Shown here in pieces: positions 9,285 through 14,698 of a stretch of 32,000 nt of DNA (its first letter is position 1; each line of letters opens with the position of its first letter). A program made the position numbers and the translations under genes. Origin of the DNA: Promethearchaeia archaeon (GTDB taxonomy: Archaea > Asgardarchaeota > Lokiarchaeia > Sigyniarchaeales > SOKP01); the NCBI GenBank assembly GCA_046497275.1, contig JAWOFX010000174.1, forward strand, positions 9,466 to 41,465, read 5' to 3'. The notes under the pieces were generated by a model. That model was not told the origin of the DNA. It did no database searches and saw only the letters and a list, made by a program, of their open reading frames with translations.

Positions 9285-9578
9285 TCAATCTAAAAACATT
9301 TCTTCTGCTTTTTTTTTCCTTAAACCTGTCTGGGAAAATAATTCCTTGAAATAATAATTGCCATCTTGGATTACGACGGGTGTGTTCACAATACATTCAT
9401 CCTCATCGCAGAAGGTCTTCAAAAAATTTTTGTCTTGAAGAAGTTGGTTCACAAATTTCTCTTCATTAATGTCTTCTTCTACATACTTCACATCATTTTC
9501 TTTAAGCCATTCTTTTAACTCTGCGCATCTATGGCAATCTTCTTTTGTTATTATTATAGGAAGCTTCATCTCAGTCAT
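9285..9578 (-). CDS. Glutaredoxin/NrdH-like protein
   Basis: CHRC active site, KEWLKENDVKYVEEDI, cis-Pro motif NTPVV. GAGGT SD-like sequence upstream. Confidence 0.8.
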   Translation of the reverse strand: MTEMKLPIIITKEDCHRCAELKEWLKENDVKYVEEDINEEKFVNQLLQDKNFLKTFCDEDECIVNTPVVIQDGNYYFKELFSQTGLRKKKAEEMFLD

Positions 9579-9806: not shown

Positions 9807-10277
9807 ATGATTAAATTAAAAAAATCTAAAATAATCAAAAGGGTAAAAACGGCTCAGTTTATAGGAAAGCAACTTTCGAGACTTAAATTAGGACAGTCGT
9901 ATTATAGTATTGCTGTATCTACCGTAAGCGCAATATCATTAATTTCTTTGGCATTCCGCATTGAATTTTGGATGATTGCTATTGCTTTTCCGATATTATT
10001 ATGCTTTGCCTATATTATCGGATATTTTCTTGATATTTATAATATTAATACGATGGATACATTGAAATCAAATGAAATAGCTCAACGATTTTTGACGACA
10101 AGTGATTTAAAAAACCAAGAATTTCAACTGCTTCAAACTGAGATATTGCTCGAAGCTGTAAAGGCCATAAATGACGGAAAGCAATTAGAACCAAGAAAAT
10201 TATTAGAGAAATATGAAGACTATTATGAGAAATGGAAATCCCCTGAACCTTTGATTGATAAACAAAAATTAAAATGA
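9807..10277 (+). CDS. Hypothetical membrane protein (about 2 TM helices)
   Basis: Hydrophobic stretch at aa ~31-75 and GGTGA SD upstream of the ATG; no recognised family. Confidence 0.6.
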   Translation: MIKLKKSKIIKRVKTAQFIGKQLSRLKLGQSYYSIAVSTVSAISLISLAFRIEFWMIAIAFPILLCFAYIIGYFLDIYNINTMDTLKSNEIAQRFLTTSDLKNQEFQLLQTEILLEAVKAINDGKQLEPRKLLEKYEDYYEKWKSPEPLIDKQKLK

Positions 10278-10294: not shown

Positions 10295-11362
10295 TTAAAT
10301 GATTTTTCTTACAATCCATCCTAATGCTTTCATCATTTTTTCATGATTATTGGATAAGTTTACAGGAAAATATTCGATGGAGATATTGCATTTTTTAGTT
10401 TTTTCGAGATCAAATAATTTATCTAATTCTTCTTCAGAAACCTCTTCATGGTCGTTTTTTTTGTTCCCAATGATGAGTATTGGGGTTCTATTATCCAACT
10501 TAATATTGCATAATCGATTAGTAATAAATTTAAATTTCCCCCTTGCATCAAGAAAAGATTGTTTATGTGATGCATTAAAGATTAATATAAAACCTTGAGC
10601 CTTATTTATACATCTATTTTTTTTGTTGCATTGTTCACAGTTAAATTGTTTATCAATGCAATCTTCCATTACGATTTCCATGTTATCAATTACCACATTA
10701 AAAATTTTTGTTGGAAGATCGAGGTTATCTTGTTTTTGAATTTGAATTGATTTAAGATTATTGATAAATGCACTTTTACCAGCATTTTCAGCACCAAAAA
10801 TAAAAATCTTCTTAGTTTCTTCAATATTTTCCGTTTTAAAGGAAGCTTCTTTTGTACTTAATCTGCTAAAATAAGAATCATACAGATCAAAAAATTCCTT
10901 TTGAAACTCATTGCTTTCTAATGATATCTTATTTTGTAATGGGTATTTATTATTATTTTTATTTAAAACATCCGAAAAATCTCTTAATTCCTTCAATTTA
11001 ACAGCATATTCTTCTAAAATAGGAGTTTTTGTCTCTAAATATTTAAACACATCTGTTATTTCATTTTTAAAATATTCTGCTCTAATCATATAGGTAATCA
11101 TCAGCAATAATCTTCCCCCTCGCGCATTTTCATTTTCTATATAGAAAATATGGTTGACAGTTTGATAATTTCTAAAAGCAAAAATAAAAGTACCTTCTTC
11201 ATCAGTGATATCTAAAATCCTTCCTAAATCGGGATGATCAAATTCTTTTGATAATTCCTCATTACAATAAAATATAGTTGGTCCTATGATTGTATCAAAA
11301 TATGAAATGCAGAGAAATTCCTCTTGTGCCATAATTATTATATAATTGGAAGGATAAAGCAA
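10295..11362 (-). CDS. Fusion of an N-terminal uDENN/longin-like (folliculin/SMCR8-like) domain and a degenerate small GTPase domain; probable start is ATG at 11332
   Basis: N-terminus: LCISYFDTIIGPTIFYC and HIFYIENENARGG. C-terminus: G1 GAENAGKS, G2 PT, AQGFILIFNAS..SF, PILIIGNKKND; no DxxG. Confidence 0.75.
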   Translation of the reverse strand: MLYPSNYIIIMAQEEFLCISYFDTIIGPTIFYCNEELSKEFDHPDLGRILDITDEEGTFIFAFRNYQTVNHIFYIENENARGGRLLLMITYMIRAEYFKNEITDVFKYLETKTPILEEYAVKLKELRDFSDVLNKNNNKYPLQNKISLESNEFQKEFFDLYDSYFSRLSTKEASFKTENIEETKKIFIFGAENAGKSAFINNLKSIQIQKQDNLDLPTKIFNVVIDNMEIVMEDCIDKQFNCEQCNKKNRCINKAQGFILIFNASHKQSFLDARGKFKFITNRLCNIKLDNRTPILIIGNKKNDHEEVSEEELDKLFDLEKTKKCNISIEYFPVNLSNNHEKMMKALGWIVRKII

Positions 11363-11536: not shown

Positions 11537-11854
11537 ATGGAGAAAATGGAAATTCCCGAGTATATTGAAAAAATAGCTAATAAAGTAGAAGGGAAAAATG
11601 ATTCGAAAGATATGATGGCTTTTACACTCTCTACATGTCAATGGTGTAAAAAATTTAAAAGATATATGAAGGATCGAGATGTTTCCTTTAAATATGTAGA
11701 TGTGGACCAAATAGATCCAAGTGAAAAAGCACAAATATTAACTTTCTTACGTAATAATTTTGATGAACGAGTTTCCTACCCATACTTAATTTGTGATGGA
11801 AATGTGGTGGTGGGATATAATCCGAATAAATATGATGAATTATTAAAGGACTAA
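11537..11854 (+). CDS. Glutaredoxin-like protein (probable FTR partner)
   Basis: LSTCQWCKK active site, VSYPYLIC (cis-Pro), VVVGYNP. GGTGA SD upstream. Confidence 0.85.
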   Translation: MEKMEIPEYIEKIANKVEGKNDSKDMMAFTLSTCQWCKKFKRYMKDRDVSFKYVDVDQIDPSEKAQILTFLRNNFDERVSYPYLICDGNVVVGYNPNKYDELLKD

Positions 11855-11866
11855 TGGTGGTTTAAT

Positions 11867-12247
11867 TTGAGTTTTAATTTAGAGAGTAAGGAAGGAATGA
11901 GAGAATATTGTGATAAGATTTGTGAAATGAATGATTGGATTTTACAAAAAGATAAAGAAACTTTAGATGATTTAATTGATGGACTAGTTGAAAATAAGAA
12001 AAAATATGGATACCAATCGTGCCCTTGCCGTTTTGCATGTGGGAAAAGAGAGTTAGACAGAGATTTAATTTGTCCCTGTGTTTATGCTAAACCAGATATA
12101 GAAGAATATGGGACATGTTACTGTAATCTCTATCTTAGTCCGGATTTTTACGAAACTCATGAAGAGGATTTCCTACAGATTCCAGAGCGTCGACCTGTAG
12201 AAAAGGAAAATGCTGTTTTAGAATACATGAATGAACAAATCCAATGA
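11867..12247 (+). CDS. ftrC: Ferredoxin:thioredoxin reductase catalytic subunit-like protein (TTG start)
   Basis: CPCR, ICPC and GTCYCNLY motifs in FTR-catalytic spacing; IPERR near the C-terminus; GGTGG SD upstream. Confidence 0.88.
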   Translation: MSFNLESKEGMREYCDKICEMNDWILQKDKETLDDLIDGLVENKKKYGYQSCPCRFACGKRELDRDLICPCVYAKPDIEEYGTCYCNLYLSPDFYETHEEDFLQIPERRPVEKENAVLEYMNEQIQ

Positions 12248-12281
12248 TTTTTAATTTTAAAATTTTTTCTTACTTTTTTTA
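12248..12281 (+). terminator. Candidate archaeal oligo-T terminator
   Basis: Several T5-T7 runs immediately after the FTR stop codon. Confidence 0.35.
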
Positions 12282-12388
12282 GATTATAAAAAAGAATCTC
12301 TTAATTTTAAAAATAATTAAGCTCTTTGTTCAAAAATCAATAATTTATAAAAATAATTTATATATATTATAGATCCTCACTAGTTAAT

Positions 12389-12547
12389 ATGTCAAGAGAA
12401 GATTTAACGGACGAAGAAATAGAGGAAATGCTTGAGAAAGATTTAAAAGCAAATGAAGCGAAACGTGATAACTGTGGAGTTGCAATCCCCCCTAATCGAG
12501 AAATTGGAATTCAAAGAGATCAAGTAAAACTCAAGAAAAAAGATTAA
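12389..12547 (+). CDS. Small 52-aa protein (below the ORF-track cutoff)
   Basis: ATG 12389 to TAA 12547: MSREDLTDEEIEEMLEKDLKANEAKRDNCGVAIPPNREIGIQRDQVKLKKKD. Purine-rich coding-like composition, TATA-like TTTATATA about 25-30 nt upstream, T-rich tract downstream. Confidence 0.65.
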   Translation: MSREDLTDEEIEEMLEKDLKANEAKRDNCGVAIPPNREIGIQRDQVKLKKKD

Positions 12548-12712
12548 GATAAACTTAGATTTTTCTATTTTTTTCCTTTATTCTATTTTTAATTATGCTT
12601 ATTTAGAATTGATTAAATAAAATAACTCAAAAAACAATATTATAAATTCTAAAAGATATTTTTATTAAGGAATCCCATTTCATTATATTACATTAGTTAG
12701 AGGTATATCTCC

Positions 12713-13696
12713 ATGGATGAGAGAATTGAAGGAAGAAAAAATTATCCCACTAAGGAAGTGGATCCAAAAAATTTCATTGATGATGATGAAATCCGTGAAA
12801 TGGTAAAACAATTAGATTCAATAGAATTTTCTGAAGATGATTATTATAAAGTTTATAACTGTGTAGATTGTGGAGAGTGTGATACCGAGGAGGATCGTAT
12901 CCGATTAAAGCAGAAATATGTTGAGCAAGGACATATCATTGAAGATTTAAAGAATATGAGACAATGCTTTGAAAAATATAGAACCCCGTATCCTATGAAT
13001 GAAATGCGAATGAAAATCCCGGAAGGGATCCCTGAAGAATCTGATACACTTTTTTTCATGGGATGTCTTTCTACGATGAAAATCCCTCGATATACTCAAC
13101 ATGCGCTTGAATATTTATTACATCGAGATATTGATTTTACAATATTAGATGAGGAAATCTGTTGCGGATGGCCATGGTATGTTTCTGGTTCAAATGAAGA
13201 ACTTGAAGTATGTATGAAAGAGAATATTGAAATTTTTAAAAATTATCAAAAAATAATTTGCCTATGTCCCGCGTGCTATTATTTATTCCAGAACAACTAT
13301 TGCAAGGAAATGGATAAAGATGTCAAAATTAGCTATATCGTTGATTATTTGAGACCTGCTAAAGAAAAAAAATCTGGAAATGTAGCGTTCCAACATCTAT
13401 GCCAGCTCAAGTTCAGAGGGGAAGACAATATAGATAAATTTGTGGAAAATATTTTTAGGAAGAGTGGATATAATATTATCGATATTCCCCATTGGTGCTG
13501 TGGACATGGGATTGGCAGAATGCATAGACTGGATGTAATTGATGCTATAGGAGAAAAGCGTATTAAGGATTTTGACCAGAAAGATATTGATTTCGTTTCC
13601 ACGTACTGTGTTTCCTGCTGGTGGTGGCTGTATCGTTTCTCTAAAAAATTCAGAATACATCCTCAAGCTAGGGATATTTTTGAATTACTTATGTAG
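12713..13696 (+). CDS. CCG-domain Fe-S oxidoreductase (HdrB/HdrD/GlpC-like), paralogue 1
   Basis: FFMGC...EICCGWP...CLCPACY and QHLC...HWCCGHG...TYCVSC form two CCG domains; single CxxCxxC at aa 50-56; GAGGT SD. Confidence 0.85.
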   Translation: MDERIEGRKNYPTKEVDPKNFIDDDEIREMVKQLDSIEFSEDDYYKVYNCVDCGECDTEEDRIRLKQKYVEQGHIIEDLKNMRQCFEKYRTPYPMNEMRMKIPEGIPEESDTLFFMGCLSTMKIPRYTQHALEYLLHRDIDFTILDEEICCGWPWYVSGSNEELEVCMKENIEIFKNYQKIICLCPACYYLFQNNYCKEMDKDVKISYIVDYLRPAKEKKSGNVAFQHLCQLKFRGEDNIDKFVENIFRKSGYNIIDIPHWCCGHGIGRMHRLDVIDAIGEKRIKDFDQKDIDFVSTYCVSCWWWLYRFSKKFRIHPQARDIFELLM

Positions 13697-13726
13697 ATTT
13701 ATATTTATTATTCAAAAGGTTATAAT

Positions 13727-14698
13727 ATGGGTAATAATGATAAAAAGGAAAGAAAATACCCTGCTCAAGAGGTAGAACCAGAAAGTTTTATCACTAATGA
13801 AGAAGTAGAAGAACTTCTTAGAACAAAACATGAGTACCGTTTTCAACAAGAGGATTATAAAAGATTATATAGCTGCATCCATTGCAGAGAATGCGGGACA
13901 TCTGACGAAAGAATCCTCCTCAAGCAAAAGTTTCTTAAAGATGGAAACAAAATTGAAGGATTAGAAGAGACCAAAAGAGTATTTCAAAAATATGGAAGTC
14001 CCTATAAAGATACAAAAAGACGAATCAAACTGCCAAAAAATATACCAAAAGAAAGTGACACTTTACTTTATTTTGGGTGTTTTGTTAATGTAAAAGTACC
14101 TAAATATGGAGAACATGCGGCACAGTATCTTTTAGATAAAGGGGTTGAATTCACAATTTTAGAAAAGGAGATTTGTTGTGGATATCCAGTACTTGTAACA
14201 GGTGATACAGAAACTTATGATTATCTCATCGAGAAAAATAGAAAAATATTTACTGACAAAGGGTTCAAAAAAATAATTACTATATGTCCAAGTTGCTATA
14301 TGACCTTCAATAAACACTATGCTGACTTAGATATAGAGATAGAATATTATACGAAATATTTAAAGCCCGCCGAAACGCAAAAATCTGGAAATGTAAGTAT
14401 TCAACATGCGTGTCCTTTAATATATGATTGTATGCCTGAAATGAAAGATAGGATTGAAGATCTTTTGAAAGAATCTGGTTATAATGTTATGGATATTCCT
14501 TTGTTCTGTTGTGGGGGTGGTGTTGGTCATCAGTTAAGAACAGATATAGCAGAAAAGATTGCTAAGCTTCGAGTGCAAGACTATAAAGGAAATTTTGTGA
14601 CTTATTATTGCCCTGATTGTTATTGGTTTATTAATGTATTTGGAAAGAGAGCTCGAATCAAACCGAAATTGAAGGATTTAGTGGAATTATTATCTTAA
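13727..14698 (+). CDS. CCG-domain Fe-S oxidoreductase (HdrB/HdrD/GlpC-like), paralogue 2
   Basis: YFGC...EICCGYP...TICPSCY and QHAC...FCCGGG...YYCPDC; single CxxCxxC at aa 50-56; collinear with paralogue 1. Confidence 0.85.
   Translation: MGNNDKKERKYPAQEVEPESFITNEEVEELLRTKHEYRFQQEDYKRLYSCIHCRECGTSDERILLKQKFLKDGNKIEGLEETKRVFQKYGSPYKDTKRRIKLPKNIPKESDTLLYFGCFVNVKVPKYGEHAAQYLLDKGVEFTILEKEICCGYPVLVTGDTETYDYLIEKNRKIFTDKGFKKIITICPSCYMTFNKHYADLDIEIEYYTKYLKPAETQKSGNVSIQHACPLIYDCMPEMKDRIEDLLKESGYNVMDIPLFCCGGGVGHQLRTDIAEKIAKLRVQDYKGNFVTYYCPDCYWFINVFGKRARIKPKLKDLVELLS

Follow-up and report, generated by a model that had tools for sequence, protein, structure and literature searches.

The 32,000-nucleotide stretch of DNA analysed here (the window; contig JAWOFX010000174.1, positions 9,466 to 41,465, of a Promethearchaeia archaeon) encodes on its minus strand a protein of 345 residues, P0001, whose N-terminal domain is, as judged from structural modelling, a longin of the GTPase-activating protein (GAP) class represented by FLCN, NPRL2 and SMCR8, and whose C-terminal half is a divergent Arf/Sar-like G domain. 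The longin half carries an invariant Gly-Pro (GP) loop and an invariant arginine that align with those of FLCN, and the G domain has lost its switch II. We favour, tentatively and with slightly less than even confidence, the reading that P0001 is a longin GAP module tethered to a pseudo-GTPase, its candidate arginine finger acting in trans and its G domain fulfilling a regulatory, targeting or pseudosubstrate role. Longin-domain GAPs (FLCN-FNIP, GATOR1 and C9orf72-SMCR8) are products of disease genes and regulate mTORC1 and lysosomal signalling.

The open reading frame extends over 10295..11362 on the minus strand, the strand of all the features of this gene given below, with the element under study in its 5' third, and it contains both peptides quoted in the original prediction, which proposed an FLCN/SMCR8-like longin domain with an arginine finger fused to a small GTPase. 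The whole coding sequence (345 codons plus the stop codon) occupies 10295..11332 and starts with the ATG at 11332. Residues are numbered from this ATG because homologues begin at the equivalent methionine in their alignment; the in-frame upstream TTG (11362) is an unlikely start, homologues aligning from the methionine of ATG 11332. The arginine codon (CGA at 11122-11120) is as first described, and the residue originally counted as Arg81 from the TTG becomes Arg71 from the ATG.

The longin domain, its GP loop and its arginine

Residues 4-160 (10853..11323) were modelled by AlphaFold2 (AF2) from a 53-sequence alignment as a longin fold, with a predicted local distance difference test (pLDDT) of 88 and a predicted template modelling score (pTM) of 0.86. 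The topology is ββ-α-βββ-αα, comprising β1 (5-13), β2 (17-23), α1 (36-40), β3 (47-53), β4 (56-66), β5 (74-84) and helices within 95-159. Foldseek searches of the PDB with this model retrieved NPRL2 of GATOR1 as the top match (E 1.4e-5), followed by FLCN (2.8e-5; structures 8DHB, 6ULG and 6NZD), with yeast Npr2/3, the Lokiarchaeota longin 8YQG, Lst4 and FNIP2 among the further matches. Exhaustive comparison with VIA-align ranked 8YQG, a Loki Roadblock-Longin protein that forms a dimer, as the best match (Z 12.1), next to FLCN (Z 12.0; root-mean-square deviation 3.0 Å over 137 residues, 18% identity) and NPRL (Z 10.6), whereas the longins of TRAPP, Sec22, VAMP7, Ykt6, DENND1 and Mon1-Ccz1 reached Z 8-9.3; the FLCN/NPRL subunits score about 3 Z over the generic longins and those of the guanine nucleotide exchange factor (GEF) type. 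Beyond archaeal clusters, the structural neighbours of the domain in the ESM Atlas are NPRL2, C9orf72, FLCN and SMCR8. The fold anticipated in the original prediction is therefore the one modelled.

The two FLCN fragments used for sequence comparison, 4-26 (with F10-C-E-L-H-G15-P16) and 148-183 (with L-A-R164-G), were verified against PDB chains, in which FLCN carries F10-x4-G15-P16 and H154-x-F-x3-D-x2-A-R164-G. In BLASTP, FLCN 153-182 aligns with residues 60-88 of P0001 with 11 of 30 positions identical and one gap (E 0.003), pairing R164 with R71, and hhalign of the same fragment against the family profile gave an identical register. Likewise, FLCN 5-25 aligns with residues 7-27, so that F10 pairs with F12 and G15-P16 with G17-P18. 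Both alignments are collinear and consistent with the secondary structure. The aromatic and Gly-Pro residues belong to the β1-β2 loop motif YFDTIIGP (residues 11-18; 11279..11302), defined by the FLCN alignment together with conservation in the family, and the arginine lies in the stretch formed by strand β4 and the β4-β5 loop, NHIFYIENENARGG (residues 60-73; 11114..11155), the loop itself spanning residues 67-73 in the AF2 models. In FLCN, R164 is the catalytic finger, F10 contacts RagC, the substitution F10D abolishes GAP activity and the loop 10-16 sets specificity for RagC (PMC9473554). R147 is the arginine finger of SMCR8, and the GP motif, placed in the β1-β2 loop or at the start of β2, is specific to GAP longins and absent from those of TRAPP, adaptin and DENND (PMC12290439); an arginine between β4 and β5 has also been put forward as diagnostic of DENN/longin GAPs (2026 preprint). 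The details of FLCN and SMCR8 that the original prediction had cited are thus borne out by the chains and the literature, and its proposed equivalence of the archaeal arginine to the FLCN finger holds in the sequence alignments. The longer motif that it gave, H-x-F/L-x-x-x-D-x-x-ARG, needs a minor correction: it is present in FLCN and the terminal Ala-Arg-Gly (ARG) is kept in P0001, but the aspartate is Asn67 here and serine in the family consensus.

Conservation was assessed on 120 full-length homologues, about 40-73% identical to P0001, which are the reference for all counts out of 120 given below. Y11, F12, D13, G17, P18, F63, R71 and G72 are present in every one of them and A70 in 119, in agreement with the conservation of ARG originally expected. 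The 53 N-terminal domains used for modelling extend to very remote proteins, with a mean column identity of 29%; all of them have G17-P18, and more than 90% have R71. All-pairs identity amounts to 66.8% for residues 4-90 and to 50.8% for the G domain; on this comparison of sequences, the longin half is under stronger constraint and evolves more slowly than the G domain. Neither a C-terminal DENN domain, as in FLCN and SMCR8, nor the NPRL2-specific domain is present in P0001. Because its C-terminal half is instead an Arf-like G domain, P0001 has only the longin module in common with FLCN, SMCR8 and NPRL2 and is not orthologous to any of them.

The divergent C-terminal G domain

A flexible linker (residues 161-172; 10817..10852; pLDDT below 50) separates the longin domain from the G domain (residues 173-345; 10298..10816), and the expectation of a GTPase domain following the longin was correct: residues 170-343 match Pfam Arf at E 6e-8, with 32.8 bits against a cut-off of 22.3, and the nearest structures found by Foldseek are Sar1, Asgard ArfR and Arl. 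Nonetheless, this domain ranks 47th among the 49 Arf-profile matches of the genome to which the window belongs (3.85 Mb), which also contains 17 Gtr1_RagA matches, about 10 of the 49 being Rag-like. P0001 gave no match to Gtr1_RagA (PF04670); it has no C-terminal roadblock domain, ending with the G domain, and no N-terminal amphipathic helix of the Arf type, the longin and the linker occupying that side.

Part of the nucleotide-binding apparatus is well preserved in the family. The P-loop (GAENAGKS, residues 180-187; 10772..10795) has G180 and K186 in 120 of 120 members and Ser/Thr at position 187 in 109; the acidic Walker-B position is kept (D224), as is the Arf β4 signature xQG[FL]I, in the form AQGF, in 104-118 members; N290 and K291 occur in 119 and 111, respectively. 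On the other hand, none of the 120 members contains the DxxG(Q) motif with the catalytic glutamine of switch II. In its place, in a segment of about the same length (residues 223-241; 10610..10666), P0001 has Cys225, Cys232, Cys235 and Cys241 in the arrangement C-x6-C-x2-C-x5-C, of which only C241 is universal (120/120), the other three being found in 49-96 members. The switch-I position normally occupied by Thr/Ser is Asn in 21 of the 120; G4 reads NKKND (residues 290-294; 10451..10465), or NKFxD in the family, with the aspartate one residue out of register relative to NKxD; and the SAK of G5 is replaced by [SP]-I-N-[VI]-L. The suspicion that the attached GTPase is degenerate was thus well founded. 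With switch II lost, together with part of G2, G4 and G5, this domain would not be expected to work as a normal self-hydrolysing switch, and since the P-loop and the Asn-Lys pair are kept, nucleotide binding appears to be retained; from these sequences it is probably a nucleotide binder devoid of the canonical spring-loaded switch and of the catalytic glutamine.

A distant subgroup of relatives (P0173, P0182, P0185 and P0192) has a C...C-P-x-C cluster of its own at the former switch II site and no P-loop. This pattern suggests that a metal or redox element may have been recruited repeatedly into the former switch II.

Modular relatives and proposed mode of action

A word-index search retrieved 282 relatives, nearly all 340-360 residues long and aligned over their full length, from Promethearchaeota/Lokiarchaeia-type metagenome bins, some of them labelled by their depositors as Heimdall-, Hod- or Hermodarchaeota. 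The full-length family is encoded in 58 of the 68 GTDB species genomes of the taxonomic family of the window, almost always as a single copy, and 232 further genomes of the phylum gave no match at E ≤ 1e-30, with only 7 candidates scored in each; among the genomes searched it appears confined to one GTDB family. Far more widespread is the longin domain with GP and ARG: out of 301 genomes from the phylum, 132 match its profile, usually more than once. The distant relatives P0168, P0171, P0203 and P0205 join this longin type to G domains of canonical sequence, with GLDxAGKT, DVGGQ, NKxD and SAK. Some distant longin-G domain proteins continue further into PAS-GAF-histidine kinase modules and others have PAS or TPR domains only, fusion to two-component domains being seen in P0205, P0206, P0198 and P0180; GP and ARG are kept in the PAS, TPR and histidine-kinase fusions. 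They are equally kept in a subgroup of the 345-residue family that has lost the P-loop Ser/Thr and the Asn-Lys pair.

The genome of the window itself contains several paralogues. P0209, of 470 residues (locus L005:493-1902, minus strand; approximately 40180-41589 of contig C172), has a GP/ARG longin that falls just short of the Pfam Folliculin cut-off (23.1 bits; cut-off 23.3), together with a G domain of the canonical Rag-like kind (Gtr1_RagA 1.1e-24; GLDKVGKT, DLGGQ and NKYD) and an extra C-terminal part. About 10 kb from it lies a tandem pair of Rag-like genes of 318 residues each (C172:51810-53713). Two further GP/ARG longin proteins, of 441 residues (L002:616-1938, minus strand, contig C69) and 293 residues (L003:1504-2385, plus strand, contig C46), have no G domain, and Pfam searches recognised nothing in their C-terminal parts. 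At least one other longin-GTPase, of 330 residues and on contig C51, has a longin with neither GP nor ARG.

GP and ARG are hence invariant with the cis G domain canonical, degenerate, dead or absent, and the constraint on the arginine must be independent of that domain. This comparison favours the earlier suggestion that the finger may act in trans, which, from the sequences at hand, is the most likely mode of action. The longin type is expected to work on GTPases of the Arf/Rag family because it has repeatedly been fused to Arf/Rag G domains and because the residues that it retains are those FLCN needs for its GAP activity on RagC. We propose that the longin domain is the active part of the protein. 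It would dock, probably as a longin dimer by analogy with other longins, at the nucleotide pocket of small GTPases of the Arf/Rag type, into which Arg71 would reach as an arginine finger and stimulate the hydrolysis of GTP. The C-terminal G domain would still bind nucleotide and would most likely serve as a tethered regulatory pseudo-GTPase, whether for sensing, for targeting or as a pseudosubstrate occupying the finger, and the real substrates would be other G domains in trans, among the 49 that match the Arf profile.

The architecture is nevertheless most simply read as an enzyme joined to its own substrate, and P0001 could be a self-contained switch in which Arg71 completes its own G domain, in cis or across a homodimer, replacing the switch-II glutamine and turning the protein into a combined GAP and GTPase timer. 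In favour of this proposal, other fusions of this longin type carry canonical Arf/Rag G domains, the P-loop counts imply selection for nucleotide binding, the gene occurs as a single copy in most genomes of the taxonomic family, and the 12-residue flexible linker would permit docking. However, GP and ARG show no variation even when the attached G domain is devoid of its P-loop Ser/Thr and Asn-Lys, or when no G domain is present; in a family whose 120 members all lack the glutamine and the DxxG glycine, and 21 of which lack the switch-I Thr/Ser as well, an arginine by itself would probably catalyse poorly; and the two domains are not docked confidently in the full-length AF2 model (pTM 0.49). 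A complex prediction of the full-length homodimer with GTP and Mg, run without controls, gave an ipSAE of 0.00 and speaks neither way on dimerisation or docking. We consider such a switch improbable on balance, if a serious competitor to trans action.

Several observations weigh against a tethered GAP acting in trans. The P-loop is clearly held by purifying selection, as would equally be expected if the G domain were the real substrate in cis, and the same full-length model leaves the interdomain arrangement without confidence. Furthermore, the short FLCN alignments reach just E ~0.002-0.003, each in a single comparison; a profile of the 53 N-terminal domains searched against all PDB sequences with hmmsearch returned only noise, with no FLCN; Pfam Folliculin (PF11704) does not match P0001 at E up to 10 and matches just 2 of the 53 N-terminal domains, weakly (E ~0.03); and the invariant arginine and GP may be structural or bind another ligand. 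A phmmer search with residues 44-100 likewise returned nothing relevant. Because the profile scores are not significant, the relationship to FLCN rests on structure together with the short collinear motif alignments. These weak profile links leave some room for a non-catalytic longin platform, an adaptor used for dimerisation or scaffolding or a GEF- or effector-type binder comparable to TRAPP, Mon1-Ccz1, SRX with SR-beta or MglB-like proteins, in which GP and ARG would be structural or contact a ligand other than a GTPase. Most longin and roadblock domains are indeed GEFs or platforms (PMC10933270); Z values of 6-9 against our model are reached even by generic longins, SRX and roadblock domains; and fusion to outputs as unrelated as PAS, GAF, histidine kinase and TPR modules would be apt for a general sensor or adaptor. 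We nonetheless regard this as an unlikely explanation, because the invariant residues correspond to exactly the three elements that FLCN requires for GAP activity on RagC, the GP motif has been reported in GAP longins only, and the FLCN/NPRL subunits stand out from GEF-type longins in the structural comparison.

It is tempting to speculate on a more elaborate version of the tethered GAP, in which P0001 would be a single-chain relic of the FLCN-Rag or SMCR8-Arf pairs, its GTP-binding pseudosubstrate auto-inhibiting the finger until a signal, perhaps the redox state of the cysteines or a metal, frees it to act on free Rag/Arf-like GTPases; as a joint claim this is a long shot. If true, it would offer a minimal prokaryotic model of nutrient signalling through longin GAPs that lends itself to experiment. 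In any case, the fusions point to Arf/Rag-family G domains as the partners of this longin type, canonical in some lineages and in P0209 and degenerate in the 345-residue family, and these small soluble single-chain proteins (345-470 residues) are suited to direct tests of the arginine-finger and GP-loop hypotheses.

Published longin proteins and the gene neighbourhood

The longin of human FLCN, a GAP for RagC/D, has in common with that of P0001 the fold, the F-x4-GP loop and the A-R-G of the β4-β5 loop, whereas P0001 lacks the DENN domain and the long longin insert, has no known FNIP-like partner and is fused to a G domain. NPRL2/NPRL3 (GATOR1, SEACIT) and SMCR8/C9orf72, its other structural neighbours, likewise have the GP motif and belong to the arginine-finger class, but they have NPRL2-specific or DENN C-terminal parts that P0001 does not possess, and in eukaryotes they are obligate heterodimers within large complexes. 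G-alpha and the GTPases activated by dimerisation are mechanistic analogues only: their arginine comes from the same chain or from the dimer partner, and the domains supplying it are unrelated to longins.

Asgard longins of the FLCN/SMCR8 type with the GP motif and the arginine finger have already been described in a study of 15 Asgard longins, which raised the question of which Asgard GTPases partner them and left it open (Traffic 2025, PMC12290439). Abundant NPRL2-like Asgard longins, two-component fusions, FLCN-like architectures and longin-Rag GTPase fusions had been reported before (Liu et al. 2020 preprint, 10.1101/2020.10.19.343400). P0001 shares with the proteins of both studies the domain class, the motifs, the phylum and the promiscuous two-component fusions of its relatives. 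In P0001 the longin is joined covalently to a G domain of the Arf family, and the 345-residue family, in which this G domain is degenerate, is restricted to one GTDB family in the genomes searched. Longin-GTPase and longin-GTPase-roadblock "Rag-like" proteins have been catalogued in Prometheoarchaeum MK-D1 (Tran et al. 2024, Commun Biol, PMC10933270); these, grouped here with LokiRagM/LokiRagO (9M28, 8YL2) and the Roadblock-Longin protein 8YQG, have the longin-G domain architecture in common with P0001, with a G domain between Arf and Rag in similarity. Neither an arginine finger nor a GP motif is described in the fused longins of that catalogue, and P0001 differs from these proteins and from the LokiRag proteins in having neither DxxGQ nor a roadblock domain. 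The domain class, its motifs and the longin-GTPase fusions are therefore already published, P0001 belongs to that known kind and the gain is incremental; nor is the idea of an evolutionary antecedent new, having been stated both in PMC12290439 and by Liu et al. What our comparison of sequences adds is the explicit residue mapping, including the equivalent of F10, the finding that the longin fused to Arf/Rag G domains is the one bearing the candidate finger, and the pattern of G-domain degeneration in a lineage-restricted family.

Divergently from the longin-GTPase gene runs a redox cluster (11537-14698, plus strand) consisting of Grx, FTRB, a 52-residue open reading frame and two CCG-domain proteins, where Grx stands for glutaredoxin and FTRB for the catalytic chain of ferredoxin-thioredoxin reductase. 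The opposite flank, including 9285-9578 on the minus strand, encodes another glutaredoxin, an FMN reductase and a regulator of the HTH_10 type. The synteny with the redox cluster is kept in 5 genera of the taxonomic family and lost in one. Taken with the four cysteines of the former switch II, this arrangement suggests a redox-controlled module, in which the Cys segment would bind Zn or Fe-S or form disulfides under the control of the neighbouring Grx/FTR/CCG cluster, its thiol state gating the GAP. Such control appears very improbable to us: C241 is the sole invariant cysteine, genera with two cysteines retain the synteny, the genes are divergent rather than arranged in a single operon, and the neighbours are themselves 60-80% identical between genomes, so that the conserved arrangement may reflect nothing but inherited gene order. 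A correlation between cysteine count and the Grx-FTRB-CCG synteny was considered separately and ruled out, on account of the genus that has two cysteines and retains the cluster.

In related genomes the redox cluster also includes a protein of 367-371 residues with a Fuz/Mon1/HPS1-type first longin (PF19036, 28.3 bits; L006:1401-2516 and L007:1018-2121, both plus strand), together with a protein of 349-357 residues of no known type. Both are missing from that position in the window. The former was considered as an FNIP-like partner and rejected, because nothing closely similar lies near the window and the rest of the genome yields only weak matches. Finally, a predicted membrane protein of 156 residues, for which Pfam returned no match, is encoded at 9807-10277 on the plus strand, converging on the 3' end of the gene for the longin-GTPase; in two genomes of a different genus (L049 and L052), proteins 72-73% identical to it occupy the same position.

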